Shown here in pieces: positions 1 to 16,894 of a stretch of DNA of 64,000 nt. The DNA lies in the NCBI GenBank assembly GCA_014879445.1, contig JACSSC010000026.1, positions 2,033 to 66,032 on the forward strand, in the 5' to 3' direction. Position 1 is the first letter of the stretch; the number at the start of each line of letters is the position of its first letter. A program made the translations under genes and the position numbers. Under the pieces are notes generated by a model, which saw only the letters and a program-made list of their open reading frames with translations, was not told the DNA's origin and ran no database searches. The stretch is from Candidatus Competibacteraceae bacterium (GTDB lineage: Bacteria > Bacteroidota > Bacteroidia > CAIKAF01).

Positions 1-212
1 TTAGCTACAACAACATCCCAATTACTCCCGTTATGCACTTTGCCAATATGATAAATATTCCCTCCTGTCGTTTTCATATCAACCGAATACACAATTGTAC
101 TTGAAAATTCTGTTGATTCTTGTTTCCATGTTTGGGTAAACATGGTATGTTGAGAAAATGCAAAATTGAAAATCAATCCCAATGATACAATAAGCGAACT
201 TAAAACCTTCAT
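1..212 (-). CDS. Partial CDS (first ~70 codons; gene continues past the window start) encoding a signal-peptide protein of unknown function
   Basis: ATG at 212 on the minus strand. Translation MKVLSSLIVSLGLIFNFAFSQHTMFTQTWKQE... is a typical Sec signal peptide. The frame stays open to position 1. It is absent from the ORF track only because the window edge truncates it. Confidence 0.4.
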   Translation of the reverse strand, partial: MKVLSSLIVSLGLIFNFAFSQHTMFTQTWKQESTEFSSTIVYSVDMKTTGGNIYHIGKVHNGSNWDVVVA

Positions 213-414
213 GATAATTTGAATTTTTATTGCTCAAATTTCTAGCATATGGAATATCCAAAATGAAAAATGATATGAAAGAAGTTTAGAATGTTATAAA
301 AGGACAAAAAGATGTAACGAGCATTTCAAATGTCTTTAAAAAGCCCTGATTAGTTTTAAGTAATCTGAATTCTACAATTCAAATTTTCATGATAAATCAA
401 GTAATTATTGCCAC

Positions 415-1752
415 CTACAACAATTCATTCGCCACATTGGCCAATTCGCTTCTTTCACCTTTTTCGAGTGTAATATGAGCATGAATAGGATGGTGATGCA
501 TCCTATCAATTAAATAGCTAAGGCCATTACTTTGTGTATCAAGATACGGTGTGTCAATTTGATAAATGTCACCTGTAAAGATAATTTTAGTATTTTCTCC
601 GGCTCTGGTAATAATGGTTTTCACCTCGTGAGGTGTAAGATTTTGAGCTTCATCAACTATAAAAAAAATATTTGACAGAGAACGACCACGAATATAGGCA
701 AGTGGTGTAACAACAAGCTTTTCCGACTCAAGCATTTCTTGCACCTTCTTACCATCTTTATCTCTTTCCTCAAATGTATTTTGAATATATTTCAGGTTGT
801 CATATAACGGCTCCATATATGGGTTTAGTTTTGATTTAATGTCGCCAGGCAGATATCCGATATCTTTATTGCTAAGTGGCACAATAGGCCTGGCTAAATA
901 TATTTGTCTGAAATCACGACGTTGCTCCAGTGCGCCGGCAAGTGCAATCAGTGTTTTTCCTGTTCCTGCAACACCTTGTACTGTAACCAATTTTACATTC
1001 GGATTCATGATGGCATGAAAAGCAAATACTTGTTCTGCATTACGTGGTTTAATATTATATGCAGTACGTTTTTCCACCCTTTCTATCTTTCGTATGAAAG
1101 GGTTAAATGTGGCAAGAACTGAGGTTTTACTGTTTTTTAAAATAAAATAGTGGTTGGGAATAGGTGCTTCATCAAAAATCTCTTTCACTTCACAAAAACC
1201 CTCCTGATATATTTTTTCAATAATGTCATGATTTACACCTTCGATCGTACTTTTTCCTTTGTATAAATCATCAACATTTTTAACCTTTCCGGTTTCAAAA
1301 TCTTCTGCAAAAAGATTCAATGATTTAGCTTTAAGTCGGAGATTTACATCTTTGGTAACCAATATTACCTTCCGATCGTTATTTTCTTGCTGTAACCGTA
1401 TCGCTGCATTCAGTATTTTGTGATCAATTTTGTTATCACCAAAAACTTTTCTTGCATCCGGAGTACTATTTTCTTCCATAACTACACGAAAACGACCCAA
1501 GCCATTTCCGTTAAGCTGTATCCAGTCAGTGAGTGAGCGGCCTTCGGAATACCCGTCAATCACACGGATAAATTCTCTTGCTTCAAAATTTTTTGTATCA
1601 TTCCCTTTTTTAAAATTATCCAACTCTTCCAAAACGCTAATAGGAATAGCAACATCGTTTTCTGCAAAGCTTTCAAGAGCGGTATGATTGTATAAAATAA
1701 CGGAGGTGTCAAGGACAAAAATTTTGGGCTGTTGCTTTTTCTTTGGACTCAT
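415..1752 (-). CDS. PhoH-like ATPase with N-terminal PIN domain (YlaK/PhoH2-type)
   Basis: N-terminal PIN-like region (FVLDTSVIL...D residues), then Walker A GVAGTGKTLIALAG and a PhoH-type C-terminal domain. ATG at 1752. 445 aa. Confidence 0.85.
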   Translation of the reverse strand: MSPKKKQQPKIFVLDTSVILYNHTALESFAENDVAIPISVLEELDNFKKGNDTKNFEAREFIRVIDGYSEGRSLTDWIQLNGNGLGRFRVVMEENSTPDARKVFGDNKIDHKILNAAIRLQQENNDRKVILVTKDVNLRLKAKSLNLFAEDFETGKVKNVDDLYKGKSTIEGVNHDIIEKIYQEGFCEVKEIFDEAPIPNHYFILKNSKTSVLATFNPFIRKIERVEKRTAYNIKPRNAEQVFAFHAIMNPNVKLVTVQGVAGTGKTLIALAGALEQRRDFRQIYLARPIVPLSNKDIGYLPGDIKSKLNPYMEPLYDNLKYIQNTFEERDKDGKKVQEMLESEKLVVTPLAYIRGRSLSNIFFIVDEAQNLTPHEVKTIITRAGENTKIIFTGDIYQIDTPYLDTQSNGLSYLIDRMHHHPIHAHITLEKGERSELANVANELL

Positions 1753-1970
1753 GTGTTGAAATATTTAATAGTAAAATCAAATATGGGCATGAATAACGTG
1801 AATAAACATAAAGAATATAAATAACCTGAATGAAAGTTTTAAACCTATCCCCATACATAATTTATTCTTCTGTTTATCAGGTGCTTGAATTAATCACAAA
1901 TCCATATTGAAAACTTTTTCTACAATATGTATGGTTTGATTATTAAAAAAAAGAAATTTATCCTTTGATT

Positions 1971-2612
1971 ATGAATCAAGAAGAAATACGTAAACGAAAC
2001 CGTGAATTGCTGTCGCATTATTTTCCTGCTGGCACAAGCGAGATTGCATACGATTGGATACAGAAGTACAGATTTCGATTTCGAATTAGTAGAAGCAGGC
2101 AAACACGTTTTGGTGATTTTCAAGCATCCTTACGAGCGGATTTTCCACACAAAATATCGGTTAATCACGATCTAAACCCTTATGCATTTCTAATTACTTT
2201 TTTGCACGAAGTAGCACATCTGATTACCCATAACAAATACCGTGATAAAGTGCAGCCACACGGCCCTGAGTGGAAACAAGAATTTTCTGACTTATTACTT
2301 GTATTTATGAATAAGCAGGTTTTTCCTGAAGATATTGAGCAGGCGCTTAACAATACCATTCTTAACCCAAAAGCATCATCCTGCACCGATCACCAATTAT
2401 TTCGTGTATTAAAGAAATATGATCAAAAGCCGGTTGTGCACTTAGAAGAACTCCCGACAGATTCAATTTTTTCATTAGGCAAAAATGGAATTTACAAAAA
2501 AGGAATAAAGCGTAGAACTCGCTATTTGTGTCAACATATGGAGTCGAAAAAAACTTATCTAATCAGTGGTATTGCAGAAGTGCAAATTATCACTTCATCC
2601 ATTCCATTTTAG
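1971..2612 (+). CDS. SprT-like zinc metallopeptidase family protein
   Basis: HExxH motif in FLHEVAHLITH with an SprT-like surrounding pattern. The track start at 1965 is TTG; the first ATG is at 1971. Divergent from the PhoH-like gene. Confidence 0.65.
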   Translation: MNQEEIRKRNRELLSHYFPAGTSEIAYDWIQKYRFRFRISRSRQTRFGDFQASLRADFPHKISVNHDLNPYAFLITFLHEVAHLITHNKYRDKVQPHGPEWKQEFSDLLLVFMNKQVFPEDIEQALNNTILNPKASSCTDHQLFRVLKKYDQKPVVHLEELPTDSIFSLGKNGIYKKGIKRRTRYLCQHMESKKTYLISGIAEVQIITSSIPF

Positions 2613-2700
2613 ATTTTACAGAATAAGTTTTTCCTAACAATTATAATATCGTTTACGGGTATGCAAAGAAATTATCATCTTAGCAGTCAGATTAGCTATT

Positions 2701-4845
2701 ATGGGAAGAAATAAAAAAAAGGGTAATGTGCCCAACCGGATTGAGCAGGAAATTTTAGACATTTTAAAAGAAGATAGTCACATTTCGTTGAACTATAAGC
2801 AAATCGCTGCTCGCCTTAATATCAGCGACACAAAGGGTCGCAATCATGTTCAACAATGTCTTGTAAAACTTGAAGAACGAGGCCTAATTGATGAAGAAGA
2901 AACGGGCAAATACAAATTGCCCATTCATATCCAGTATATAGAAGGAAGAGTAGATATGTCGGGGTCAGGAAATGCTTATATCGTATGCGACTCCATTAAA
3001 GAAGATATATATGTTGTTTCGGGAAATCTAAAAAATGCATTGCATGGCGACAGGGTTAAAGTGTTTGTATATGCCCGAAAAAAAGGACAAAAATTTAAGG
3101 GCGAAGTAGTTGAAATTCTTGAACGTGCCAGAACTGAATTTGTGGGGACGCTGGAGGTTACGAATAAATTTGCATTTCTAAGCCCTGATAATGAAAAGAT
3201 GTTTCACGATATTTTCATACCGTTGAAAGATTTGAATGGAGGGAAAAATGGACAAAAAGCCATAGCCCGAATAAATGAATGGACTGAAAAATCAAAAAAT
3301 CCGGTAGGAGAGATCATCAAAGTATTAGGCAATCCAGGCGACAACGAAACTGAGATGCATGCTATCTTAGCTGAGTTTGGGCTTCCGATAGAATTTCCTG
3401 ATGAAGTGGAGGCCGTTGCCGAGCGTATCTCATTTGATGTGCTAGAAGATGAAATAAAAAAACGTCGCGATATGCGACAAGTGCCGACATTTACGATTGA
3501 TCCCGAGGATGCAAAAGATTTTGATGACGCCCTTTCAGTTTCGGTCCTTCCAAACGGCAATATTGAAGTAGGCGTTCACATCGCAGACGTTTCATACTAT
3601 GTACACGAAAACTCATTGCTTGACAATGAAGCATATCGCCGTGCCACTTCTGTTTATCTGGTTGATCGTGTAGTACCCATGTTGCCAGAAAAACTTTCTA
3701 ACGGAGTTTGCTCTCTTCGACCAAATGAAGATAAGCTTTGCTTCTCTGCAATTTTTGAGATGAATCATCAAGCAGAAGTAATACATTACTGGATAGGTCG
3801 TACAGTCATTCACTCCCAAAAACGTTTTAGTTATGAACAAGCACAAGAAGTGATTTTAACTAAAAAAGGAGACATGCAAGAACAAATAGCGATTCTAAAC
3901 CACTTGGCGGGAATACTTCGCAAAAAAAGATTTGAAAATGGTGCATTGCGTGTTGAACAAACAGAAGTAAAATTCAGGATAGACGAAAAGGGAAGACCAA
4001 CAGATGTATTTTTTAAAGAAAGTAAAGATGCCAATTGGCTCATTGAAGAATTTATGCTTTTGGCAAATAAACATGTAGCTATATTTATTGGATTAAAAGA
4101 CAAATCACAAAAAGAAATCAAGACCTTTGTGTACAGAATACACGACCAGCCAAAAGAAGAAAAGTTATCAGAGCTTAAAAGATTTGTTGCCAATTTTGGA
4201 TACAAGCTCGACCTCAATTCTCCCAAAACCATAAGCGCCAGCATCAATAAAATGCTAAGTGATGTAAAAGGCAAACCCGAGGCCGATATGATTGAAAATT
4301 TAACCATCCGCAGTATGGCCAAAGCCATTTACACAACCGACAATATTGGTCATTATGGGCTGTCGTTTGATTATTATACACACTTCACATCACCCATCCG
4401 AAGATATCCGGACGTGATGGCTCACCGGCTTTTACAACATTATATTGAGGGTGGCGCATCTGTTAAAAAAGAAGCACTTGATGCAAAATGCAAGCACTCC
4501 TCTGATATGGAAAAGCGTGCTGCTGAAGCAGAAAGAGCGTCTATCAAATACAAACAAGTTGAATATTTGTCGGAGCGCATTGGTAACCAATTCAAGGGCG
4601 TTATTACAGGAATCACCGAATGGGGGGTATATGTTGAAATTATTGAAAATAAATGTGAAGGTATGATTCGTCTGCGTGACCTAGAAGATGATTATTATTT
4701 TTTTGATGAACGAAATTATCAAATACGCGGCACCCGAACTGGGAACATATACCGACTAGGCGATAAAGTTATAATCCGGGTGAAACAAACCAATATAGAA
4801 AAACGTACCATTGACTTTGAAATGATTGGAATGACAGATGAATAA
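2701..4845 (+). CDS. rnr: Ribonuclease R (3'-5' exoribonuclease, RNB family, VacB)
   Basis: 714 aa. N-terminal HTH/cold-shock-like region, RNB catalytic core (DPEDAKDFDDALSV, LVDRVVPMLPE...) and a C-terminal S1 domain (GVITGITEWGVYVEI). Confidence 0.92.
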   Translation: MGRNKKKGNVPNRIEQEILDILKEDSHISLNYKQIAARLNISDTKGRNHVQQCLVKLEERGLIDEEETGKYKLPIHIQYIEGRVDMSGSGNAYIVCDSIKEDIYVVSGNLKNALHGDRVKVFVYARKKGQKFKGEVVEILERARTEFVGTLEVTNKFAFLSPDNEKMFHDIFIPLKDLNGGKNGQKAIARINEWTEKSKNPVGEIIKVLGNPGDNETEMHAILAEFGLPIEFPDEVEAVAERISFDVLEDEIKKRRDMRQVPTFTIDPEDAKDFDDALSVSVLPNGNIEVGVHIADVSYYVHENSLLDNEAYRRATSVYLVDRVVPMLPEKLSNGVCSLRPNEDKLCFSAIFEMNHQAEVIHYWIGRTVIHSQKRFSYEQAQEVILTKKGDMQEQIAILNHLAGILRKKRFENGALRVEQTEVKFRIDEKGRPTDVFFKESKDANWLIEEFMLLANKHVAIFIGLKDKSQKEIKTFVYRIHDQPKEEKLSELKRFVANFGYKLDLNSPKTISASINKMLSDVKGKPEADMIENLTIRSMAKAIYTTDNIGHYGLSFDYYTHFTSPIRRYPDVMAHRLLQHYIEGGASVKKEALDAKCKHSSDMEKRAAEAERASIKYKQVEYLSERIGNQFKGVITGITEWGVYVEIIENKCEGMIRLRDLEDDYYFFDERNYQIRGTRTGNIYRLGDKVIIRVKQTNIEKRTIDFEMIGMTDE

Positions 4846-5317
4846 TATGATAAAACACAAACTGCTATTTATATGCATCGTTTTGGGCTGGAGCTGTGGC
4901 TCGCCTGTAAAAAAGGAAAATGATAAAGACAAACAATTTGATTCTGAAACAGCTACACTATCCAACACCTATAATGTAGATACCGGACTGCATAACCGAA
5001 ATCAGGAATTACCCGAACCAGAAGGAAAAATTAAATCAACGGTAAACATTGCCAACACGCCTGTGTTTAAAGATCGAATAGCCACTCAAGATGATGTAAA
5101 AAATGGGCTTGCCATTTTCAGCATTGAAGGAAAAGGGAAGAAGCATACTCCGGCCAACATTAAGCTGCCGTTTTATGCTCTCATGACATATCAAAACGAA
5201 CAGGTAACAGCTATTATAGTTCAGGCAGAAGTACTAGATGGCGACACTTTGTATGGATATAAAAACGGAAAAGGAGTGATTGGCATGTGTACTTCATCCG
5301 AATTTTCGTTCAAATAA
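4838..5317 (+). CDS. Hypothetical lipoprotein
   Basis: Start overlaps the rnr stop by 8 nt. N-terminus MNNMIKHKLLFICIVLGWSCGS is a lipoprotein-type signal with Cys. No recognisable domain. Confidence 0.5.
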   Translation: MNNMIKHKLLFICIVLGWSCGSPVKKENDKDKQFDSETATLSNTYNVDTGLHNRNQELPEPEGKIKSTVNIANTPVFKDRIATQDDVKNGLAIFSIEGKGKKHTPANIKLPFYALMTYQNEQVTAIIVQAEVLDGDTLYGYKNGKGVIGMCTSSEFSFK

Positions 5318-5372
5318 GTTGTGTAATAAAAAAAAAAGATTATAAATTGCATACTTAATTAAACATTTTATT

Positions 5373-6419
5373 ATGAAAAAATCATTACTAACATTATTTG
5401 CATTGGGTATGGCTGTCGTAAGTTATTCTCAATTCACTATCGTAAGTGCTGATATGCCTAGTGTAGGTAATATCATCGTAAGACAATCAGACACACTCTC
5501 AGTATTTTTTCCCGGAGCTGCGGGTTCGGGTGTATTGTGGGATTTTACTGCGGCTATAGCGCATGAGCCAGAAACTACATTTGTGGTTGCTCCATCCACT
5601 ACGCCCTTTGCATCAGATTATCCAACATCCAATCTGGCATTTACAAGGGATAATAACAACTTTATGTTTCTTACTAATTCTCCTTCTGGTTTAACCGTGC
5701 AGGGTTTGGGTGGCAACTATATTACCGGAAACGATGTATTGGCTTTTAATCCAGAACTTACCATGTATGAGTTTCCGCTTGCATACAACGACAATATGAG
5801 TGACAACTATGCTGTTGAACTGGAAACCGATGGTTCGTCATTCGGTGTATATAAAATTAAATTCAAAAGGTCAGGCACAGTTGAAGATACAGTTGATGGA
5901 TACGGAACACTTAAAACTCCTTACGGCACATATGAAGCACTTCGGGTAAAAAGACACGAAGTGGCGATTGATTCTGTGTTCATCAAATATTTGAGTGATT
6001 TGGAGCCATGGTCGCTTTTTTATGATAGCAATGCCCCTATGATTACGTATTCTTGGCTCACTAAAGAAGAAAAATTGCCTACAGTAGAAATGACTATGAA
6101 TGCCACAGGTGATACTGCCGCCACATTTGTATTCTCAACTTCAATTGGTACTTTTTCAATCGAAGAAGAAAATTACACACAAGCCATTGTAGCACCCAAT
6201 CCGGCTAACGATTTAACTTCAATATATCTTCCATACTCTATAACGGTAGAAAAGACACAATTTCGCCTGACAGATATACATGGAAAAGTTGTACAAAGTC
6301 GCTTTGTAATGAGTGGGAACAGAATTGATGTGCACCTGGATGCATTGCCTTCAGGCGTTTATATTTACTATATTGAAGGCGGTCCGTTACCCATTACAGG
6401 CAAGCTGATTAAAAATTAA
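5373..6419 (+). CDS. Secreted protein with T9SS type-A C-terminal sorting domain (unknown function)
   Basis: Signal peptide MKKSLLTLFALGMAVVSYSQ. The C-terminal ~75 aa (VAPNPANDLTSIYLPY...GVYIYYIEG...KLIKN) match the Por_Secre_tail pattern. Confidence 0.75.
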   Translation: MKKSLLTLFALGMAVVSYSQFTIVSADMPSVGNIIVRQSDTLSVFFPGAAGSGVLWDFTAAIAHEPETTFVVAPSTTPFASDYPTSNLAFTRDNNNFMFLTNSPSGLTVQGLGGNYITGNDVLAFNPELTMYEFPLAYNDNMSDNYAVELETDGSSFGVYKIKFKRSGTVEDTVDGYGTLKTPYGTYEALRVKRHEVAIDSVFIKYLSDLEPWSLFYDSNAPMITYSWLTKEEKLPTVEMTMNATGDTAATFVFSTSIGTFSIEEENYTQAIVAPNPANDLTSIYLPYSITVEKTQFRLTDIHGKVVQSRFVMSGNRIDVHLDALPSGVYIYYIEGGPLPITGKLIKN

Positions 6420-6431
6420 AATCATAAAAAA

Positions 6432-6460
6432 ACAGCCGGACATGCCGGCTGTTTTTTTTT
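6432..6460 (+). terminator. Rho-independent terminator downstream of the 5373..6419 gene
   Basis: Perfect 8-bp stem acagccgg / ccggctgt with a 5-nt loop, followed by T9 (6452..6460). Sits 13 nt after the stop codon. Confidence 0.7.
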
Positions 6461-6598
6461 ATAATGTACATAATCTAAATTTTGATTAGCCCATATCCTA
6501 TTTATTGATGATTTGTTTTGTCGGAATAAAAAAGAAATCACTACCACATTCATCACTTCCAAAACTTCCCATTCTGGGTTCAGATTTTACACGCTCAA

Positions 6599-8242
6599 CT
6601 ACTGAAAAAAGCTCAGATGAAGTAAGAATTCCATCGTGTCCGCCCAACGAACGAAGCGCCTCCAATAATCTGGTGACGACTTCCCTTTATACCCATCTGG
6701 CACTTCTTCTTTGCCCCCGGATGTAAGAAAACGCCTCGTGATTTTTTTTAATTTCTTACTCATATATTCATCATGTTCCATCTGCTGATAGATATTGCTC
6801 CCAAAAGTTTCGTTACGATTTTGGCACAAACTAATCTGATTATTAAATGCGCCACCGAAACAGACATCAAATACAACAAAAATCTGTTTGGCAGGAATTT
6901 TATTTATCATTTTGCCAATCTTGCTAAATGGAATATATGAATGAAGATAAGGATCTGCGTTGGGAGATTTTGATTCTTTACATACTATATAGCCCTCGTC
7001 AAAATATGTATCATTGTAGTACCCATGCCCAGCAAAAAAAATAAATAATTGTGCATTGCTGTCTAGTGTTGATGCATAATTCATAATGTTACGATATATC
7101 GAATTAGCCGAACTATCAATTAGTATTTTAGTTTGAAACCCATATGAATCTCGCAACACATTGCCGATGCTAACAGCATCAAGAACCGGGTTTGAGAGTG
7201 TGCTCCAAACGCTTTTTGCATCATAATGATCCGTGGCAATAAGCAAAGCATGCTTCCCTGAAATAGTTTGTCTAATATTAGTATGCTGACTTACCATATC
7301 AGGCCCACGTGACAAATGCTGTATGTCAGGAACAATATAAAAAAGATCTTCATAAAAAGACTTTTCAGAAAAAAGCGTTGTATAAATTCCCGAAAACCTT
7401 TCTCCTTTTAATTCTTGGGTTAACAATTCCACATATACTCTTTGCGGGGTAGTAAAAACCTGCAATAAGTTTGTTGTTTGAGAAATAAAATACATCAGTG
7501 GACCATGTGGGATATTACCATATTGATCGAGCCCGATAGTTGAAGGCAATAAGAAAACGCGGTTTTTGCTTAATAATGAAGAAACCTGCATATTCGATCT
7601 CAAAACTTTTTTTACAAACAATTTTGGAAAATCTTTATTAAACCCTGACTCCGTTATAAAAAGCTGATTTCTTGCCTGAATCAACTCGAACAAATCCTTA
7701 ATTTCTTGAGTATTGATTGCATAGTTTTTTGAAGCGATTGCCCATCTTAATGAATCATTATAATCATCCTTGACAACACCCGAATGATTTATATCATAAG
7801 TTAAAAAATAATTTTCAGAGGGGTCGAATTTTGACTCTACCGAAACCCCAGCAAATGAGAAGATAAAATAATCTTCAGGCATAGCCAATTCAATCACATT
7901 ATTGATAGCGTTCAATATATTTTCTTTAGTTGCCTGCATCTCTGTTAGCAATTGTGCATGAAAAAAAACCGAATCGTTGTCAATTAGGTACGTGGGATTG
8001 TTTTTCCCGAATACAGTATTTGGATTAATTAAGTTAACCTTGTTTTGTTTAGCTATAGTTTGAATTAGAAGTTGGGCATCTGATATGCAGTTTCGAAATT
8101 CTCCGTAAAATCCATTTTGGTTTATGCCGACAGAGATAACAAATATCCTACCACGGGGAATAGTATCCACTCCACCATCAATTTGCTTTGCAAATATTAA
8201 ATGAGATAACAAGAGTAGTAAAAAAGTAAAATAATTTTTCAT
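6599..8242 (-). CDS. Secreted peptidase C14 (caspase-fold) protein with tandem caspase-like domains. The N-terminal copy lacks the catalytic His; the C-terminal copy keeps the His-Cys dyad.
   Basis: Signal peptide MKNYFTFLLLLLSHLIFA. Second domain: KHALLIATDHY...FIFFAGHGY (His codon at 7025..7027) and QIFVVFDVCFGG (Cys codon at 6860..6862). The first domain has the parallel pattern RIFVISVGINQ...YFIFSFAGVSV, with H replaced by V. Confidence 0.7.
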   Translation of the reverse strand: MKNYFTFLLLLLSHLIFAKQIDGGVDTIPRGRIFVISVGINQNGFYGEFRNCISDAQLLIQTIAKQNKVNLINPNTVFGKNNPTYLIDNDSVFFHAQLLTEMQATKENILNAINNVIELAMPEDYFIFSFAGVSVESKFDPSENYFLTYDINHSGVVKDDYNDSLRWAIASKNYAINTQEIKDLFELIQARNQLFITESGFNKDFPKLFVKKVLRSNMQVSSLLSKNRVFLLPSTIGLDQYGNIPHGPLMYFISQTTNLLQVFTTPQRVYVELLTQELKGERFSGIYTTLFSEKSFYEDLFYIVPDIQHLSRGPDMVSQHTNIRQTISGKHALLIATDHYDAKSVWSTLSNPVLDAVSIGNVLRDSYGFQTKILIDSSANSIYRNIMNYASTLDSNAQLFIFFAGHGYYNDTYFDEGYIVCKESKSPNADPYLHSYIPFSKIGKMINKIPAKQIFVVFDVCFGGAFNNQISLCQNRNETFGSNIYQQMEHDEYMSKKLKKITRRFLTSGGKEEVPDGYKGKSSPDYWRRFVRWADTMEFLLHLSFFQ

Positions 8243-8272
8243 ACAATTACAATATTGAACATGGGTTGTGTC

Positions 8273-9199
8273 CTATTTACTCATACTATTATCAGCTAAA
8301 AATTCTTCATACAACTTATGAATAATTCCATCCGAAAGACCTACTTTAGGAACAAAGATAGATTTGATATCGGCATTTTTGCATATGTGAAGATATATTT
8401 CGGCAGCCGGCACAATGACATCCGCTCTATCTGGATTTAAGCTATATTTTCTTATTCTTGAGGAAATAGATGTGTCTTTAAGTTTTTGATAAATGTCTTT
8501 CAATTGGCTTCGTGTAAATGGATTGCCTTCCGTTTCACCAGATAGTTTTTGTAATTTGATAATATTACCACCGCTTCCAATACCCATAATGTTGGGGTAT
8601 AATTCTTGCAACATCTGACATTGATATTTTAGGCGTTGCCATTCCTCTTTATCGATTTTATCATGTAACATCCGAACTGTGCCAATATTAAAGGACTCTG
8701 CATATCTCTTTTTTCCCTTGCTAAACAATGTAATTTCGGTACTTCCTCCACCCACATCAATATATAGATAGGCCCTGGAATGTGTCAATGCGTCGGCTAT
8801 ATGATTACTGTATATTAAATCCGCTTCCGTTTTACCATCAATAATAGCAATATCAATTCCTGATTGCTCTTTAATAGTGCGAATAATATCGCTTGCATTT
8901 TTGGCTTCACGCATAGCAGATGTTGCACATGCTCTATATCCTTTCACTTCATGAATTTCGATTAGATTACGAAATGCCAGCATTGCCTTTATCAGTTTAT
9001 CAATTTTGGCTTGCGAAACAATGCCATTCACAAATACATCTTCACCCAATCTGATTGGCACGCGGGTAAGCGCTACTTTTTTGAAAACCGAAATTCCCTC
9101 ATCATTATGATAAATATTATAAAACAGAAGACGAACAGCATTACTGCCAATATCTATTGCTGCAAATTTCACATATTCTGGGTCTTCAATCCATTCCAT
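8273..9199 (-). CDS. Ppx/GppA family phosphatase (exopolyphosphatase / guanosine pentaphosphate phosphohydrolase, short form)
   Basis: FAAIDIGSNAVRLL...YIDVGGGSTEITLF actin-like ATPase motifs of Ppx/GppA. The track start (9244) is TTG; an in-frame ATG at 9199 gives an MEWIEDPEY N-terminus. Confidence 0.8.
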   Translation of the reverse strand: MEWIEDPEYVKFAAIDIGSNAVRLLFYNIYHNDEGISVFKKVALTRVPIRLGEDVFVNGIVSQAKIDKLIKAMLAFRNLIEIHEVKGYRACATSAMREAKNASDIIRTIKEQSGIDIAIIDGKTEADLIYSNHIADALTHSRAYLYIDVGGGSTEITLFSKGKKRYAESFNIGTVRMLHDKIDKEEWQRLKYQCQMLQELYPNIMGIGSGGNIIKLQKLSGETEGNPFTRSQLKDIYQKLKDTSISSRIRKYSLNPDRADVIVPAAEIYLHICKNADIKSIFVPKVGLSDGIIHKLYEEFLADNSMSK

Positions 9200-10041
9200 T
9201 TTTGTTGATAATATTGTATTAATTGATTCATGGGATTTTTGCAAAAGTAGCCAACAGATATTTGCTGACTACACACTTTCCTCATTTCATTTTGAAAATA
9301 ATAAGCTACCGAACCGCTGAAATGTGCTGTATTGTGTAGAGGTGTCATGTTTTGATGTTGATAATATCTCAAATGACGGCTTATCAGCATTTGAAATGAA
9401 TGCATAATAGATTGCTGCATATCCGGATGCTGCCGATGTGTATGAATAAATGGTACAAAAGATGCCAAGTAGCGATTTGGAGATAATTCGCTATATACTT
9501 GTTGAATGATATCATCCATTGTGAGATGATATGTATCCCAGAATGCTTGTTGCAAATCTTTGGGCCATTCATTGCGCATATATGAAATTAAAAGTTGTTT
9601 GCCAAGCCATGAACCACTACCCTCATCGCCTAGGAGATATCCACCCGAGGGGGCAGAGGAAAGAATTTTTTGTCCATCCCATAAACATGACGCTGATCCT
9701 GTGCCAACAATAAAAATCAAGCTCTGTTGATTATTCGACAATGCATGAGCGACTGCCATGATATCGGGATAAACCTGTATGATAGAAGAAGGAAAGAAAT
9801 GAGATAAAACATCTTGCATAATTGGTGCAGAAGTAGTATTCACACCGGCACCGTAATAATGCACTTCATCGGGACATATTTTCAAAAAGTCCGCATCAAA
9901 AATCGGTGCAATGCGCCTATGAATATCGTCTTTCGACATTTGTATCGGATTGATTCCATCAGCATCTTTTGTAGAGATATAACCTGGGCTTAGGATAGCC
10001 CAGGTTGTTTTAGTTGAACCTGCATCTGCCAACAATATCAT
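9169..10041 (-). CDS. BadF/BadG/BcrA/BcrD-type ATPase (N-acetylglucosamine kinase family)
   Basis: N-terminal MILLADAGSTKTTWAIL and GTGSA motifs typical of COG2971 sugar kinases. The 3' end overlaps the ppx start by about 31 nt. Confidence 0.8.
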   Translation of the reverse strand: MILLADAGSTKTTWAILSPGYISTKDADGINPIQMSKDDIHRRIAPIFDADFLKICPDEVHYYGAGVNTTSAPIMQDVLSHFFPSSIIQVYPDIMAVAHALSNNQQSLIFIVGTGSASCLWDGQKILSSAPSGGYLLGDEGSGSWLGKQLLISYMRNEWPKDLQQAFWDTYHLTMDDIIQQVYSELSPNRYLASFVPFIHTHRQHPDMQQSIMHSFQMLISRHLRYYQHQNMTPLHNTAHFSGSVAYYFQNEMRKVCSQQISVGYFCKNPMNQLIQYYQQKWNGLKTQNM

Positions 10042-10146
10042 GGCTTAAAAATACGGGTTTCATTTCCTTACCAAGAAGAAAAACAGAGAATTTATTCAAA
10101 TCTTTTCACCATCCCTGTGATAAACAAGGAAAATTTATTCTCAAAA

Positions 10147-11148
10147 TCATTGTACAACCAGGCGAGCCGTATGCATAGTTATCCCTCTTTGCATGTGAAT
10201 AAAATAGATTCCTGATGGCCATGCCGTTAAATCTATTGTTTGGGTTGATGCCTGTGCACTAAACGACATTATTTCTCTTCCATCAGCAGAAAAAATCCTA
10301 ACAAACCCATCATCAATGCCTGATAAAATCACATGATTAGAGGAAGGATTAGGATACAAAGAAAACTCAGTATCAGTCACAAGATCGTTTATGCTCACTA
10401 AGCAAGGAGATTGACAAACCTGCACAGTGCCATGAATGGTACCCAGGTTCAAATCAACGGCATTAGAGCCAGACAAATCACACATATCAAGTGTTCCGGT
10501 AATAATCCCTAGATTTAAACTATTGCCATCAATGCAAATCTGTCCACCACCAAGAATCGTATCTGCATTGGTAAAATCAAGATTAACACGCATTGACCCT
10601 TCCATCTGCAAAACAGCATTCACGCCACTGATTAAGCTGTCACCATTGTAGAAATAATTTCGAATTACCAGTTCTTTAGAGGGGTCTGTAAGTTTAAAAG
10701 TGCCGGTGTTCCAGAAAGATTTTTCGATATAAACATTTCCTGTTGAGAGAAACCCACCGTTGAGAGTAACATTGCTAAACAAAGAATCTGCCTCAAAAGT
10801 GCCATGATTTGATACACGTCCACCAAATAAGGCAGTGCGCTTCACATTATAATACCCATTATTTTCGAGGATGGCCGACCCCCATACGGCAATAGCACGC
10901 ATTGGATTGTCGCCAATCAGTTTTCCTGTACTTGTGATAACTACTGCGCCTGAAGTGTAGCCAAAGTCAGTATCCAAAGTAATCTGGTGCTTAATGACAA
11001 TAGAATCACCGGGCAACGGAATACAAACACAATCCCAGATAAAAGGATTAAGGGCATTGCCATTGGCAACAGATTGTCTAACATTTTGGCTGAACACTGT
11101 TGCGGCAACAAGCATAAAACCTAAAAAAGCAAGTAAACGATTTTTCAT
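10147..11148 (-). CDS. Secreted protein with T9SS type-A C-terminal sorting domain (unknown function)
   Basis: Signal peptide MKNRLLAFLGFMLVAATVFSQ. C-terminus FSLYPNPSSNHVILSG...WPSGIYFIHM...RLVVQ is Por_Secre_tail-like. Confidence 0.7.
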   Translation of the reverse strand: MKNRLLAFLGFMLVAATVFSQNVRQSVANGNALNPFIWDCVCIPLPGDSIVIKHQITLDTDFGYTSGAVVITSTGKLIGDNPMRAIAVWGSAILENNGYYNVKRTALFGGRVSNHGTFEADSLFSNVTLNGGFLSTGNVYIEKSFWNTGTFKLTDPSKELVIRNYFYNGDSLISGVNAVLQMEGSMRVNLDFTNADTILGGGQICIDGNSLNLGIITGTLDMCDLSGSNAVDLNLGTIHGTVQVCQSPCLVSINDLVTDTEFSLYPNPSSNHVILSGIDDGFVRIFSADGREIMSFSAQASTQTIDLTAWPSGIYFIHMQRGITMHTARLVVQ

Positions 11149-11206
11149 AATTATTTATTAAAAATTGAGTATAAAGATATTTGTTTTAGAAATTAAAAAG
11201 AAAAAA

Positions 11207-11623
11207 CTATTCCAACATCTCGTAGTCATCGAAAGTGTCAGAATTTTCAGATTGTTTTGAGTCGGTGGGTGGTTTACGATGAACTTTGATTTCTGTTTTA
11301 AAGAGGGGCTCGGGTTTAAATTTAAGCAATTCGGCAATATCTACTTTCAATGCATGGGCAATTTCCATCAACGTATCAATGGTGAAATTATGTTTGCCAC
11401 TAAGCCATTTGCTGATTTCGGAAGGCGACTTACCCAAAATCGCTGCAAATTCAGATTTGCTTATGCCTTTATTTTTTAGAAAATTTTCGATGTTTTGGGC
11501 CAGGTTAAACTTTGTTTCAACCTGAACTTTCTCCACTTCCTTCATGCCTTCCAGCAAGGCCTTGAGTAAATTATCCCTAAACAAGGATTTTTTTGGTTGT
11601 TTGCTAAACATATCCGATTTCAC
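11207..11623 (-). CDS. XRE-family helix-turn-helix transcriptional regulator
   Basis: HTH_3-like segment ISKSEFAAILGKSPSEISKWLSGKHNFTIDTLMEIAHALKVDIAELL, with an acidic C-terminal tail. The track start is GTG at 11623; an alternative ATG lies at 11611. Confidence 0.7.
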   Translation of the reverse strand: MKSDMFSKQPKKSLFRDNLLKALLEGMKEVEKVQVETKFNLAQNIENFLKNKGISKSEFAAILGKSPSEISKWLSGKHNFTIDTLMEIAHALKVDIAELLKFKPEPLFKTEIKVHRKPPTDSKQSENSDTFDDYEMLE

Positions 11624-11658
11624 TATTCAATATTCAAAGTTAGCTAAAATCCTTTAAA

Positions 11659-12126
11659 TCATTTATCCTCGTTTTCTATTTGCCTAATCACTTCTGAAAT
11701 ATCATCATGCGAATACCCTTTTTGAAAAAGAAACATTCTAAGTTTATTTTTCTTTTCATAAGGATGAGCTGCTTTGATATTATCCCATTTTTTTGTTGCC
11801 AAATGATATAAAACATGGCGATAATTTTCATGTTCGATACTCTCTATGGCTTCTTTTATATAATCGGTATTAATAGCACGGCGCTTCAGCTCAATTTCAA
11901 TTTTTTTCTTTCCCCACTTTTTTAATGATGAACGGGCATGGGCATACATACGAGCAAATCGGCGATCGTCAACATAACCATCAGCAACCAACTTATTGGC
12001 GATTTCTTCAGCACGTATCTTATCAATTCCCGATTTTAGGCATTTTTCAATCACTTCCGAAAAACAGCGTTCGCGGTAAGCACACCATTTTGAAATTTTC
12101 TCATATCCATAATCTCTACTGCTCAT
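11659..12126 (-). CDS. recX: Recombination regulator RecX
   Basis: RecX-like pattern (DDRRFARMYAHARSSLKKWGKKKIEIELKRRAI), ~155 aa. ATG at 12126 overlaps the upstream gene's TGA (TGATG), which suggests translational coupling. Confidence 0.85.
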   Translation of the reverse strand: MSSRDYGYEKISKWCAYRERCFSEVIEKCLKSGIDKIRAEEIANKLVADGYVDDRRFARMYAHARSSLKKWGKKKIEIELKRRAINTDYIKEAIESIEHENYRHVLYHLATKKWDNIKAAHPYEKKNKLRMFLFQKGYSHDDISEVIRQIENEDK

Positions 12127-12572
12127 CAATTGTACACATATATCAATGCGCCGTCGAAACTAGTGCTGTATTGCTTAAGAGGATAAATGGCAGGGCCATC
12201 CACATTGCTTCCATTAATAAGATTAAATCGAGATCCACAACCTGACCCAGAGCAATCGTTATCCACGAGTAATAATCCGTTATCATCCACACTAACACGA
12301 CCACAGGGGTTCTCACTATCATACGGACAATGTCTTTCGTAGCAATTCACTTGATCAATAGAGGCCCTATACAATATTAATCCGCGTGATCCGCCATTCA
12401 AATATGCCCACCCTCCAACGGCCTGCAACGAAATAAATTGAGGTTCGAAAGTGCTTATTGTAACATTTATCGGCACATCAGGAATGTTGACCGGATACTG
12501 ATAGTTACAAGAAAACATAGAAGCCAAAACCAACATGAGAGAATAAATAGATACGCTCAGTTGCCATTTCAT
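12126..12572 (-). CDS. Hypothetical Cys-rich lipoprotein (148 aa) with Rieske box-2-like spacing
   Basis: N-terminus MKWQLSVSIYSLMLVLASMFSC is a lipoprotein signal. Motifs NCYERHCPY and DCSGSGCGSRFNLINGSNVDGP. Immediately upstream of recX and overlapping it by 1 nt. Confidence 0.5.
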   Translation of the reverse strand: MKWQLSVSIYSLMLVLASMFSCNYQYPVNIPDVPINVTISTFEPQFISLQAVGGWAYLNGGSRGLILYRASIDQVNCYERHCPYDSENPCGRVSVDDNGLLLVDNDCSGSGCGSRFNLINGSNVDGPAIYPLKQYSTSFDGALIYVYN

Positions 12573-12594
12573 TTTATACCTTTATACTGTGTTT

Positions 12595-14805
12595 ATGACA
12601 AAGATAACGAATTACACGGGCATTTGTGTATATCTTCTGCTGTTAACAGGGCAACATATCCCTATTTGGTCGCAACTATCCATACATCATGGGGTTACAC
12701 TACCTACACGCGATACTGTTCGGGCATTGATTATTTTTGCCGAAGTAGATTATATGGATGGGCCATGCCCCAAAGACCTTCCCGACGAATTTCAAGGACA
12801 ATGGACACGTCTGCCTGATGGTAGCAGAGGTCTGCCGGCAAATGCGGATATCTATTTAGATCCTATCATTTCTAACCAGCCCAAGGGTTATATTACAAGC
12901 TATTATTACGAAGCATCTTTTGGTCAATATGTACTCCTGGGCGATTATCTTCCTTTTGTGGTTCGTGTTCCCTGTCATCAGATTAAACAAGGGCTCAATC
13001 TTGAGCAAACCTTACGCATCATTGATCAGCGAGCTGATGGTCAACCTCTATCAACGGCTCATGGCATACCTCTCACTTCCTTTGATCTTTGGAGCGAAGC
13101 CCCCCCCGGCCATATCAAGCCCAAAATACCCGATGGAAAAATAGATTTGGTATATCTGATTTGGCGAAATAATCGATTCCTAAGTGGATATAATACATGG
13201 GACAATTCAGGATATGGCGTAACACAAGTCAAAGGTATTCCCTTTTGTGGTATGCAGGGCGTTAATAATGCAGCATCTTTCAACAACTCATGGGGTGATG
13301 AGCATGGGTTTCACATTACCATTGCCGAACATTTACATGCCATATTTGGAGGCAATCACTGGCATTCGGGCGGAGGAAGAGGTATTCATACTTTTTTGGC
13401 AATACCATACAATTATGGATTAACCGGGCAGCTCGAAGCTACTATGCAAGCCGTTTGCGGCTGGGATCGTTGGATGATGAAATGGAAAAATCCAAAAAAA
13501 AAATTCCTGATTTCTGTACTTGATTCTTCATTGATGGAAATAAATACAGAAGATTTTAATATAAAAACTCATCCAACAGGAGGAATGTTTTATTTACGCG
13601 ACCATGTTCAAACCGGCGATGCCATTCGTATTCGACTGCCATATTTCAATTGGGAAAAAGAAGGCGACATCAAAAACCAATATCTTTGGCTCGAATATAG
13701 AGATTTCGCCACCCGATTTGACCAGTACATGAAAACCGGTGAGGCAGAATGTAGCGATCATCATCCTGAATACCCTAATGGCACACCCGGATTATACGCA
13801 TACATTCAAGTTGGCAAGGATCAGCGAGAAGGTGAGCATATTTATCACGCCCGCCCCTCTCTTCCCAATGGATTAGCCAGTTGGCTTCTTCCCCTCACTG
13901 CTGAGGGCAATCATGACTTTCATTATCGGTATGACAAAATACCCGACCCTCTGCCCGGATGTGGCAGCTGGGGCAATAAAACGATTCCGGTTGAATTAGC
14001 AAAAAGTAAACCCAATCCATTCACAGGTCACTCCGACCTTTTTCGTATCACCGATTCCAATCAAGATGGGAAATTATATTCAGGCGACGATCTTCAGCCA
14101 GGGCTGGCAGATATGTGGGGTGATTCGGTTTGGTTTAATTATCATCGCAATGGAGATAAAGATGATGCCTTCTGTTTTAAAAATAAAAAAACCCGCCTTT
14201 CGATTAGTACCAATCCTGCGCCCGTTCCGGTTTACACCTATGCTACCGATTACGAATACAATCAATTTTATTTTACATCCGGTGCCCAGCAAAGTCGTTT
14301 TGAAAACCGCAGTATTGCGCTGAATGGGTTATCTATTGAAATCATAAGGGAAGATGATAACGGTCCGGTAGGCAAAGCTATATTGGTTCATATTAGATGG
14401 GATGATTATGTAGTCAATCAATCTGTACGATGGTGTGGCCATATTGAATTGCGTCCGCATGCATTTAATCCTGAGAAGCCCTCATTAATCTTAGAAAGAA
14501 ACAAAAGCATATTGCTTGACCGTAGCGAATCTCCGACTTATCACACAAACAAAGGGGTTAGTGATAGGGGGATATATTGGTTTTCTGACACTACTGTATT
14601 TGTCGGGCTTCCTGGTGCAAATATCCAACTACAAACAGGTGCAAGAATTGAATTAAAAAATGGAAGTCGGCTTGAACTTCGTGATGGAAGTCAACTGGAA
14701 ATGGGCAAAAAAAGTCGCATTATAATACATCGTGGCTCTGCACTGATACAACATACAGGCGCAAAAATCGTTAAAGCAAAAGGTGCAAAAATTATTTTCA
14801 AATAA
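12595..14805 (+). CDS. Large hypothetical secreted protein (737 aa)
   Basis: The track start (12589) is GTG; the first ATG is at 12595. N-terminal hydrophobic signal, His-rich segment GDEHGFHITIAEHLHAIFGGNHWHSGGG, EF-hand-like loop DSNQDGKLYSGDD, and C-terminal beta-strand-like repeats (GANIQLQTGARIELKNGSRLELRDGSQLEMG). No family recognised. Confidence 0.6.
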   Translation: MTKITNYTGICVYLLLLTGQHIPIWSQLSIHHGVTLPTRDTVRALIIFAEVDYMDGPCPKDLPDEFQGQWTRLPDGSRGLPANADIYLDPIISNQPKGYITSYYYEASFGQYVLLGDYLPFVVRVPCHQIKQGLNLEQTLRIIDQRADGQPLSTAHGIPLTSFDLWSEAPPGHIKPKIPDGKIDLVYLIWRNNRFLSGYNTWDNSGYGVTQVKGIPFCGMQGVNNAASFNNSWGDEHGFHITIAEHLHAIFGGNHWHSGGGRGIHTFLAIPYNYGLTGQLEATMQAVCGWDRWMMKWKNPKKKFLISVLDSSLMEINTEDFNIKTHPTGGMFYLRDHVQTGDAIRIRLPYFNWEKEGDIKNQYLWLEYRDFATRFDQYMKTGEAECSDHHPEYPNGTPGLYAYIQVGKDQREGEHIYHARPSLPNGLASWLLPLTAEGNHDFHYRYDKIPDPLPGCGSWGNKTIPVELAKSKPNPFTGHSDLFRITDSNQDGKLYSGDDLQPGLADMWGDSVWFNYHRNGDKDDAFCFKNKKTRLSISTNPAPVPVYTYATDYEYNQFYFTSGAQQSRFENRSIALNGLSIEIIREDDNGPVGKAILVHIRWDDYVVNQSVRWCGHIELRPHAFNPEKPSLILERNKSILLDRSESPTYHTNKGVSDRGIYWFSDTTVFVGLPGANIQLQTGARIELKNGSRLELRDGSQLEMGKKSRIIIHRGSALIQHTGAKIVKAKGAKIIFK

Positions 14806-15319
14806 TCACATTGTTGTTATAAGCTTCATACTTGCATGCCTTTGTGCAAGTGTGCAAAGCAACGTGCTATTTGCTCAAAAACGCAATCCCAAAATTGAGC
14901 GTACGACCGTAAAAGATGCTCCAGAAGAAACCAAGCACAATAAAAAAAACGTACGCCCTAAAAAAAGAAAAAAATTACAATCGCGTGACTTTATCAACCA
15001 CAAATACAGTATGCGAAAAAAAATGACGGCAAAAGAAAAAAGACAAGTTGATAAAATAGCCGGGGTGGATAGAAAAAAAGTGAGAAAAGAAAAAAAGAAA
15101 GAAAAGAAAACAGATAGGTATTTTAAAAAAGAAGAGCGAAAATTGCGTCGTAAACACATGCGATTGCAAGATCCTGACGTACGGAAAAGAATGCGAAAAA
15201 ACTTCCGTAAAACTAAAAAGGAGTTTATATCGCTTCAACAAAAAAAGAGAAAAAGCCCATTAAACAAAAAACCCGGAAAGCCCAAAAAACGCAAGCGACA
15301 TACGCTGCCTAAACCATAA
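14783..15319 (+). CDS. Hypothetical extremely basic (Lys/Arg-rich) low-complexity protein with a putative signal peptide
   Basis: GTG start at 14783, overlapping the previous stop. After MQKLFSNNHIVVISFILACLCASVQSNVLFAQ the protein is about 45% K/R. Strand is uncertain, because K-rich coding produces F/L-rich antisense ORFs. Confidence 0.4.
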   Translation: MQKLFSNNHIVVISFILACLCASVQSNVLFAQKRNPKIERTTVKDAPEETKHNKKNVRPKKRKKLQSRDFINHKYSMRKKMTAKEKRQVDKIAGVDRKKVRKEKKKEKKTDRYFKKEERKLRRKHMRLQDPDVRKRMRKNFRKTKKEFISLQQKKRKSPLNKKPGKPKKRKRHTLPKP

Positions 15320-15376
15320 AGCGCTACAACCGTTTTCTTTTTGTATTTTCGTTGCCTATTTGGAACGAACAATCTT

Positions 15377-16894
15377 ATGTCAAACGAACTTTCAGAACAA
15401 GAAATCATTCGCAGGCAGGGCCTGGAAGAATTAAGAAAGATGGGTATTAATCCCTATCCATCTGAACTTTTTCCGGTAAACGCATATGCGTCTCATATTA
15501 AATTATCATTTGACTCGCAGCCCGAGAATTTTGCTGAAGTATGTTTGGCCGGACGGCTAATGAGCAAACGCATAATGGGAAAGGCCTCTTTTGCAGAACT
15601 TAAAGACAGCAGTGGCCGCATACAATTATATATCAATCGTGATGAAATTTGCTCGGGTGATGACAAAGAATTGTATAATACAGTTTTCAAACGATTGCTC
15701 GATCTTGGTGATTATATTGGAGTAAAAGGGTATGTATTTAAAACCCAGGTAGGCGAAATTTCTGTACATGTTAAAGAGTTAATTGTTTTAGCTAAATCTT
15801 TGCGTCCGCTGCCCGTAGTAAAAACAGATGCCGACGGGAATATTTATGATGCATTTGCTGATCCCGAACTTCGCTTCCGCATGCGATATGTTGATCTTGT
15901 TGTAAATGACCATGTAAAAGATACATTTCTTAAGCGTAGTCGAATGATTCATTCCATTCGCGATTTTCTGAATGTACAAGGTGCTTTAGAAGTTGATACG
16001 CCGGTATTGCAGAGCATACCGGGAGGCGCTGCAGCCCGACCATTTATTACGCATCATAATGCGCTTGACATGCCATTATACCTTCGCATCGCCAATGAGC
16101 TTTACCTGAAACGACTCATTGTTGGCGGATTTGATTGGGTATATGAATTCAGTAGAAATTTCCGAAATGAAGGTATGGATCGTACTCATAATCCCGAATT
16201 TACAATTCTTGAATTTTATGTAGCATACAAAGATTATTATTGGATGATGGAGCAAACGGAACAAATGCTCGAAAAGGTTTGCATGGATGTAAATGGAACC
16301 ACCGAAATACCAAGTGGGACAGATACCCTCTCATTCAAAGCTCCTTTTCGCAGAATTTCTCTGTATGATGCCATTCAAGAACATACCGGTGTGGATGTAT
16401 CACAAATGAATGAAGACGCGCTTCGCAATCTTTGCAAAAAATTTCATATCGAAACTGATAATACAATGGGACGAGGCAAGCTCATTGATGAGTTGTTTAG
16501 TGAAACTTGCGAAAAGCATTTTATCCAACCTACATTTATTATTGATTATCCTATCGAAATGAGCCCGCTTACTAAAAAACACCGCCACAAAGAAGGATTG
16601 GTTGAACGATTTGAGTTGATGGTAAATGGCAAAGAAATAGCCAATGCATATTCGGAATTAAACGATCCGATAGACCAATACGAAAGATTTCTTGAACAGG
16701 TAAAGCTAATGGAGCGGGGTGATGATGAAGCCATGTTTATTGACCATGACTTCATCCGATCTATGGAATATGGTATGCCTCCCATGAGCGGAATAGGAAT
16801 CGGTATAGATCGCCTGGCCATGCTTATGACCAATCAATCAACCATACAGGAAGTTTTGTTCTTTCCACAAATGCGCCCCGAAAAGCCCGAATAA
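15377..16894 (+). CDS. lysS: Lysine--tRNA ligase (class II)
   Basis: N-terminal anticodon-binding OB fold and class II core motifs (FRNEGMDRTHNPEFT, GIGIGIDRLAMLMT). The track start at 15341 is TTG; ATG at 15377 gives MSNELSEQE. Confidence 0.93.
   Translation: MSNELSEQEIIRRQGLEELRKMGINPYPSELFPVNAYASHIKLSFDSQPENFAEVCLAGRLMSKRIMGKASFAELKDSSGRIQLYINRDEICSGDDKELYNTVFKRLLDLGDYIGVKGYVFKTQVGEISVHVKELIVLAKSLRPLPVVKTDADGNIYDAFADPELRFRMRYVDLVVNDHVKDTFLKRSRMIHSIRDFLNVQGALEVDTPVLQSIPGGAAARPFITHHNALDMPLYLRIANELYLKRLIVGGFDWVYEFSRNFRNEGMDRTHNPEFTILEFYVAYKDYYWMMEQTEQMLEKVCMDVNGTTEIPSGTDTLSFKAPFRRISLYDAIQEHTGVDVSQMNEDALRNLCKKFHIETDNTMGRGKLIDELFSETCEKHFIQPTFIIDYPIEMSPLTKKHRHKEGLVERFELMVNGKEIANAYSELNDPIDQYERFLEQVKLMERGDDEAMFIDHDFIRSMEYGMPPMSGIGIGIDRLAMLMTNQSTIQEVLFFPQMRPEKPE

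Follow-up and report, generated by a model that had tools for sequence, protein, structure and literature searches.

A frameshifted copy of a Bacteroidota gene family predicted to encode an exported dead caspase-fold domain joined to a C14 protease domain

Prokaryotic caspase homologues are numerous, and very few of them have a known substrate or mode of regulation. The window analysed here, a 64,000-nucleotide stretch of contig JACSSC010000026.1, carries on its minus strand an open reading frame (ORF) of 547 codons that a sequence-only reading had taken to encode a signal-peptide protein in which a degenerate caspase domain is fused to an intact one. In this report, we describe this caspase gene together with its relatives, and we consider it likely that the window holds a recently inactivated copy of a conserved, uncharacterised Bacteroidota family, in which a predicted exported dead caspase-fold domain is followed by a linker and a C14 protease domain.

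Two caspase-fold halves and a frameshift

The ORF is present as first read (Table 1), and its product falls into two caspase-like halves. The C-terminal half is a Pfam Peptidase_C14 domain (PF00656; residues 330-475, 60.6 bits, E 2.3e-16, gathering threshold 21.4), whose FFAGHGY lines up with YYAGHGY in MALT1 and HYSGHGG in Yca1, and whose D355 aligns with the Asp of MALT1 VDV; C461 is placed by the Pfam, NCBIfam and PADLOC matches, all of which include this Cys. The His and Cys codons singled out earlier, within FIFFAGHGY and FDVCFGG, are the correct ones, and by analogy with MALT1 and Yca1 we take H406 and C461 to be catalytic. D355, D459 and D516, presumably S1-pocket residues, are candidates for a pocket accepting a basic P1 residue, and all three are present in the window. 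Profiles were needed for comparison with the Protein Data Bank (PDB), because a single-sequence phmmer search with the intact orthologue P0002 gave only marginal matches, to MALT1 (E 0.16); by profile, MALT1 was matched at E 8e-7.

For the N-terminal half, the window protein and ten full-length relatives were aligned, and the alignment was split into N- and C-half profiles. Compared with each other by hhalign, the two profiles aligned over 186 columns with a probability of 98.3% and an E-value of 9.3e-14, pairing FSFAGVSV with FFAGHGYY (V133 on H406) and FITESGFN with VFDVCFGG (G200 on C461); this similarity, far beyond chance, indicates that the halves are homologous. Against the PDB, the hidden Markov model (HMM) of the N-half matched metacaspase structures (Yca1 at E 1.5e-5; AtMC4, GSU0716 and TbMCA2 at E <=5e-4), with its Val column falling on the His of the GHG motif in Yca1 HYSGHGG, and the half has the similarity to solved structures of the clan CD (caspase-hemoglobinase) fold. 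The comparison list for fold and homology, in which the figures carry no label, gives 18.2 for Metacaspase-4, 17.9 for Metacaspase-9, 17.6 for GSU0716, 17.3 for MALT1, 17.0 for Yca1, 15.0 for Caspase-8 and 12.3 for cFLIP. When 11 N-halves were scanned alone, four matched Pfam C14 (best E 7.3e-11), and the window's own N-half gave no match. The N-half is without the His-Cys dyad, since the Val already noticed at the His position (V133) is joined by a Gly at the Cys position (G200). It nevertheless has a C-x-x-D-A motif (C52, D55) like that of metacaspases and, two residues before the former Cys, an acidic residue; D55, E198 and D239 are all kept in the window. With the first half in the caspase-hemoglobinase fold and the His of the second on the catalytic GHG, the internal homology and the dead-then-active layout of the sequence-only reading therefore stand.

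The C-terminal domain, however, is not intact, as had been supposed. Set against two reference sequences, the contig L001 (99.5% identical) and the orthologue L002 (55% identical), the window is without 10 nucleotides (nt), ATTTGCTCTA, between 6672 and 6671. Because of this deletion residues 525-547 are out of frame: these final 23 residues, DYWRRFVRWADTMEFLLHLSFFQ, have no counterpart in the relatives, which after the SSP motif continue F-A-x-x-L-E-A-L...G-I-L-T...G-S-D-F-x-F. The original C-terminus, RLLEALRSLGGHDGILTSSELFSVVERVKSEPRMGSFGSDECGSDFFFIPTKQIINK and then a stop, can be read in another frame (6671..6498) that ends just before a strong hairpin and is now translatable only via a frameshift. 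The frameshift leaves the C14 domain incomplete, the match ending at profile position 141-144 of 233 where intact relatives reach 195-205, and restoring the three missing residues extends it from position 144 to 193. In the structural model of P0002 the lost segment corresponds to two helices and the final beta-strands; since this part of the protease fold is missing, the model suggests that the truncated product is most likely inactive in this genome. The 547-residue product is not the native protein, and the window copy should be annotated as frameshifted rather than as a 547-residue 'caspase family protein'.

Table 1. Features of the caspase gene and its flanks (window coordinates)
Feature	Position	Strand	Remarks
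Caspase-gene ORF	6599..8242	-	547 codons + stop; frameshift-truncated copy of a ~584-codon gene
Predicted Sec (type I) signal peptide	8189..8242	-	MKNYFTFLLLLLSHLIFA, residues 1-18; lipobox Cys absent; by hydrophobicity heuristic
N-terminal pseudo-caspase (caspase-hemoglobinase fold) domain	7328..8158	-	residues ~29-305
V133 codon	7844..7846	-	catalytic His position of the N-domain
G200 codon	7643..7645	-	Cys position of the N-domain
Interdomain linker	7256..7327	-	residues 306-329; variable, predicted disordered
Linker R312-G313	7304..7309	-	conserved
C14 protease domain, in-frame part	6671..7255	-	residues 330-524
H406 codon (CAT)	7025..7027	-	within LFIFFAGHGYY of the C-domain
C461 codon (TGT)	6860..6862	-	within VVFDVCFGG of the C-domain
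10-nt deletion junction	6671..6672	-	ATTTGCTCTA missing relative to L001 and L002
Out-of-frame tail	6599..6670	-	DYWRRFVRWADTMEFLLHLSFFQ, residues 525-547 + stop; non-native sequence
Original-frame remnant	6498..6671	-	last 57 caspase-domain residues + original stop; by translation
G+C-rich hairpin with T and A runs	6426..6458	strand-neutral	between convergent genes
Type IX secretion system (T9SS) cargo ORF, flanking	5373..6419	+	with Por_Secre_tail
T9SS cargo ORF, flanking	10147..11148	-	with Por_Secre_tail

A Bacteroidota family and its probable decay in one species

Searched against 1.84 billion representative proteins, the N-half profile gave 25,117 matches at E <=1e-3, amounting to the C14 superfamily, and 171 representatives below E 1e-30, which are mostly 545-600 amino acids (aa) long, are matched in two stretches and show a recurring 'hydrophobic/Gly + His/Cys' pattern at the dyad columns. 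We counted conservation over 83 two-domain representatives, mutually less than 50% identical, in window numbering. In the C-domain D355, G405, H406, G407, D459, C461, S523 and P524 are each present in 83/83, and D516 is present in 79/83. In the N-domain D55 is kept in 83/83 and G132 in 82/83; the His position 133 is occupied by F, V, Y, I, M or L (Tyr in 12/83), position 198 is acidic in all 83 (E in 65, D in 18), the Cys position 200 is G in 67, C in nine and Ser in two, and position 239 is D in 42 and E in 39. The linker retains R312 (79/83) and G313 (77/83) and is otherwise variable, and the equivalent stretch of the P0002 model has a predicted local distance difference test (pLDDT) value below 50. 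Nine of the 83 dead domains keep the Cys with the His lost (for example P0010, P0106, P0132, P0133, P0143, P0147 and P0157), and thus the dyad residues did not disappear at the same time.

A scan of one genome per species returned 80 loci, about 40 of which have the two-domain architecture, and the tandem layout is therefore conserved in related genomes. All of these two-domain loci belong to Bacteroidota or close allies (Chitinophagaceae, Pedobacter, Crocinitomicaceae, Flavobacteriales, Fibrella, Salinimicrobium and Balneolaceae), bar one metagenome-assembled genome (MAG) labelled Methylophilus. The closest species locus is from Crocinitomicaceae, at 47% identity, and cultured carriers of intact genes include Pedobacter frigiditerrae, Salinimicrobium soli, Flaviaesturariibacter aridisoli and Fibrella musci.

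The N-terminus of the window protein, MKNYFTFLLLLLSHLIFA followed by KQ, has the features of a type I Sec signal peptide, as proposed earlier: Lys at position 2, a basic n-region, a hydrophobic core with a mean Kyte-Doolittle value of 2.6 over 11 residues, an A-x-A-like end and no Cys. A hydrophobicity heuristic, on which the export call for both the family and the window rests, finds a signal-like hydrophobic N-terminus in 71 of the 83 representatives and a lipobox-like one in two. Pfam detected no T9SS C-terminal sorting domain (Por_Secre_tail) in the window protein, the repaired protein or the relatives. Because neither a lipobox nor such a sorting domain is present, the intact family members are most likely exported by Sec and periplasmic.

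In sister strains, too, the gene is decaying. L001 keeps the 10 nt missing from the window but has a frameshifting deletion of its own, 11 nt lost some 34 nt further downstream (window 6638..6628); over 13.6 kb the two sequences differ by 45 substitutions and two indels, and both indels are these deletions. They frameshift the 3' end of the caspase gene (window 6628..6672; L001 7560..7620), and no obvious repeat or microhomology that would explain a deletion hotspot lies in this interval. The cluster formed at 90% identity has 18 members, of which 15 are listed; among these 15, the 542-aa allele with the 11-nt deletion occurs in many independent contigs, the 547-aa allele with the 10-nt deletion is identical to NCBI MBE2246487.1, the rest are fragments, and an intact allele of ~584 aa was not found. 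Two further assemblies (L084 and L085) combine the 10-nt deletion with CAA>TAA at codon 219 (a stop at Q219) and with five additional changes, every one of them non-synonymous; in P0035 a 2-nt frameshift follows V220, and P0031 has the 11-nt deletion and G407E, adjoining the catalytic His. In contrast, all 40 other species loci have an open frame and a tail of 53-73 residues after the SPF motif. Given independent lesions among sister strains and a tail preserved in 40/40 loci of other species, repeated and recent inactivation within this one species is the simplest account, and the window copy is probably a decaying pseudogene. Programmed frameshifting was considered and rejected, as no slippery heptamer lies at the junction and the two alleles need opposite shifts (-1 after the 10-nt deletion and +1 after the 11-nt one); an assembly error was rejected because the same deletions recur in independent assemblies.

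No conserved neighbour or operon partner was found, no gene being common to more than seven of 41 loci, and in the window the gene has ORFs for RNase R, two T9SS cargo proteins and a Ppx/GppA phosphatase as neighbours, together with one unassigned ORF; on both grounds, the caspase gene is a stand-alone gene outside a defence context. In the genome of the closest intact orthologue, the caspase gene is preceded on its own strand by the gene for a 200-aa leucine-rich-repeat protein (L002 7363..7965; L003 4815..5417), which ends 36 nt before it; neither the window nor the other loci have this neighbour. In the window, the caspase gene lies 30 nt downstream of two ORFs (8273..9244 and 9169..10041, minus strand) and may form one transcription unit with these two upstream genes, in this species only. 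The Ppx/GppA ORF as listed (TTG start, 323 aa) overlaps the ORF upstream of it by 76 nt, and the gene call on the sister contig has a later start (308 aa). The hairpin just past the original stop is probably a bidirectional terminator, and no tRNA, tmRNA or Rfam family at the gathering threshold was found in the whole window (1..64000).

Longer relatives also exist. Long forms of 830-1150 aa, many from Chitinophagaceae and Pedobacter (L004-L013, L015-L019, L021-L024, L033, L037, L048; P0039-P0057), include forms from these two groups with a third, more N-terminal partial caspase-like stretch, detected by the N-half profile and often with His at the His column, while Pfam gave no other domain in their extension; the lengths at the L loci (~870-1170 aa) were counted from the first Met and are upper bounds. 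Pfam scans of the longer relatives (700-1150 aa) found no informative extra domain and no sensor domain. The same domain pair also lies near the C-terminus of giant proteins of 1500-2300 aa (P0122, P0128, P0145, P0154, P0161, P0163, P0164, P0172, P0179, P0180 and P0182), in which the N-type domain keeps the His ('HG+HC'), both dyads being complete ('HC+HC') in P0182 alone. These giant proteins may represent intermediates in the degeneration of the first domain.

The source of the contig deserves comment as well. MBE2246487.1, the identical 547-aa protein, was deposited from a MAG named 'Candidatus Competibacteraceae bacterium' (Gammaproteobacteria). The caspase gene is flanked by ORFs with T9SS domains, the G+C content of the window is ~33-44% in 2-kb windows and mostly near 40%, and the closest relatives of the caspase are all from Bacteroidota; set against the Gammaproteobacteria label, these features indicate that the contig may be mis-binned.

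Proposed mechanism and competing explanations

In the intact protein, a signal peptide would be followed by a dead caspase-fold domain, a disordered Arg-Gly linker of ~25 residues and a metacaspase/paracaspase-like C14 domain. The active domain has the motif pattern xxVLDA, AGHGY and DVC, as in MALT1 and metacaspases, where the two Asp of the pattern line the S1 pocket and give Arg/Lys specificity; because both Asp are part of the shared pattern, the domain is predicted to cleave after Arg or Lys, like metacaspases, orthocaspases and MALT1. Near-invariant within a disordered linker just ahead of such a protease domain, the Arg-Gly dipeptide is a candidate autoprocessing site or tethered pseudo-substrate. 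The dead domain may have kept a basic-residue-binding pocket (invariant D55, E/D198 and D/E239) and is probably a built-in non-catalytic partner, which could serve as a pseudo-dimer scaffold or a substrate exosite; by analogy, its role would parallel that of the pseudo-protease domains of separase and Csx29, or of cFLIP with caspase-8. A bolder proposal, which we regard as doubtful, is a periplasmic single-chain 'caspase heterodimer', in which the dead domain would have a working Arg/Lys pocket and, as an exosite or by capturing Arg312 after Arg-Gly autocleavage, would switch on the active domain, and in which the multiple knock-outs would be selection against the active protease. If true, bacteria would have their own equivalent of the regulation by cFLIP/caspase-8 or separase, evolved independently and outside the cytoplasm, and the 10-nt and 11-nt deletions, the stop, the 2-nt frameshift and G407E would reflect such selection, not drift.

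Several points weigh against our reading of the locus as an inactivated copy of an exported dead-plus-active protease. The full-length AlphaFold2 model of the intact orthologue P0002 has a predicted template modelling (pTM) score of 0.52 and a disordered linker, and a pseudo-dimer interface is unsupported because the relative placement of the domains is not confidently predicted. A Foldseek search of this model against the PDB returned single-domain matches only, with MALT1 at the top (E 2e-10); neither separase nor Csx29 came up as a two-domain template. Whether D239 corresponds to the third pocket residue, D516, is uncertain, as hhalign puts D239 three residues away. Export is deduced from a hydrophobicity heuristic, and the activity of the C14 domain and the roles of the dead domain are predictions from sequence. 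Finally, the truncated protein could conceivably keep some function, and the 542-aa allele is widespread, so that truncation could be tolerated rather than merely recent.

The last of these points leads to the explanation that the gene is functional as written, the 10-nt gap being an assembly error or the shortened C-terminus being tolerated. In its favour, the 547-aa sequence has a protein entry (MBE2246487.1), many independent assemblies contain the 542-aa and 547-aa alleles, and the remainder of the ORF is open. Nevertheless, the deletion is no one-off error, because it is also present in the independent assemblies L084 and L085; the lost tail, with its near-invariant residues, is kept in 40/40 other species loci and is part of the Pfam domain, including core helices and strands in the model; and in sister strains a stop codon, more frameshifts and G407E come on top, all of which makes this explanation unlikely. 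More difficult to judge is the role of the N-domain, which might be a large pro-domain, that is, an intramolecular chaperone or inhibitor discarded after post-export cleavage at Arg-Gly, with no lasting role as partner or exosite. Secreted clan CD proteases (gingipains, C11) commonly have pro-domains, the Arg-Gly is conserved within the disordered linker, and the N-domain evolves faster than the C-domain (mean pairwise identity 26% versus 37%); yet the pocket-forming acidic residues are kept in the N-domain (D55 and E/D198, 83/83 each), needlessly for a mere pro-domain, and we know of no C14 pro-domain that is itself a caspase fold. We see such a pro-domain as a possibility on the improbable side, and the evidence does not really separate it from the preferred explanation of a dead domain kept as a built-in partner.

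A role in anti-phage defence or abortive infection, as an effector comparable to the caspase-like proteases found in type IV Thoeris, CBASS-CHAT and Craspase, would fit the matches to the PADLOC 'caspase' profile (47 bits, profile positions 3-126 of 453) and to NCBIfam caspase_w_EACC1 (48.9 bits against a cut-off of 140), both of which we judge weak and generic. This role is highly improbable in view of the signal-like N-terminus in 71/83 members, the lack of a conserved neighbour in 41 loci, the RNase R, Ppx/GppA and T9SS cargo neighbours in the window and the lack of a sensor domain in the Pfam scans of longer relatives. Still more remote, to the point of being negligible, is a chance or compositional likeness of the first half, as an unrelated domain, to caspases; the failure of the window's N-half alone to match Pfam C14 would agree with it, but it is refuted by the hhalign comparison of the halves and by the matches of the N-half profile to PDB metacaspases.

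Comparison with known caspase homologues

The active half has its best structural and sequence match in MALT1 (Foldseek E 2e-10; profile E 8e-7), an Arg-specific protease activated by dimerisation, with which it shares the xxVDx / AGHGY / DxC motif pattern. MALT1 differs in being eukaryotic and cytoplasmic, in having death and Ig domains and in lacking a pseudo-caspase domain in cis. Among prokaryotes, the metacaspase-like proteases and orthocaspases (C14B, MaOC1; GSU0716, 3bij) share with the family the C14 domain, the GHG and DxC motifs and the acidic pocket residues, and an N-terminal signal or transmembrane segment is also common in them: a transmembrane helix or signal peptide ahead of a caspase domain is among the commonest architectures of prokaryotic caspase homologues (PMC3501461), and export is therefore not the unusual trait that it had been taken for. 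Neither that 2012 survey (PMC3501461) nor a later study (PMC6426788) mentions an extra divergent dead caspase-fold domain before the active one.

The dead domain itself invites comparison with bacterial pseudo-orthocaspases, which share the caspase fold, a substituted dyad and the acidic pocket. These are stand-alone proteins with a conserved acidic specificity pocket, typically with His>Tyr and Cys>Ser substitutions, and they are concentrated in Alphaproteobacteria and Cyanobacteria and rare in Bacteroidetes (10/1078) (PMC6426788). In contrast to the pseudo-orthocaspases of Klemencic et al. 2019, whose p20 domain stands alone, the dead domain described here is fused to an active domain and typically has hydrophobic/Gly residues at the dyad positions (Val/Gly in the window).

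Separase and Csx29 (TPR-CHAT) likewise place a pseudo-caspase before an active caspase domain in cis. Csx29 has a pseudo CHAT1 and an active CHAT2 domain in an arrangement 'that resembles separases' (PMC10028731), which answers the earlier impression that a tandem of this kind was undescribed in bacteria; the arrangement is not unprecedented there, and its design principle is common to separase and Csx29. Because cFLIP and caspase-8 pair in trans, separase is a closer analogy than the cFLIP/caspase-8 pair that had been offered. Separase and Csx29 are cytoplasmic, belong to the CHAT/C50 branch, have tetratricopeptide-repeat (TPR) or helical regulatory regions and are controlled by partners (securin, Cas7-11), whereas the present family is predicted to be exported, belongs to the C14 branch and is encoded by a stand-alone gene; Pfam CHAT (PF12770) is not matched by the window protein, and one relative gives a sub-threshold match of 16 bits. 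Apart from Csx29, nothing relevant on tandem or double caspase domains in bacteria came out of literature searches, and no description of the present family was found in the searchable literature, which is weak evidence given the limited reach of the search.

Together, what endures of the sequence-only reading is the homology of the halves, their dead and active dyads and the conserved tandem layout, while the 'intact' domain, the bacterial novelty and the unusual export fall away. The family, uncharacterised but well defined and widespread, is an architectural variant among bacterial caspase homologues, present here as a probable pseudogene: in a predicted exported, Bacteroidota-wide protein, an active metacaspase/paracaspase-like domain always stands behind a dead caspase-fold domain and an Arg-Gly linker. 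Two hypotheses that follow can be tested, namely autoprocessing at Arg-Gly and a dependence of activity on the acidic pocket of the dead domain. With this family, the partnering of a pseudo-protease with an active protease, a theme of separase, Csx29 and cFLIP, would reach into the C14 branch and the cell envelope.

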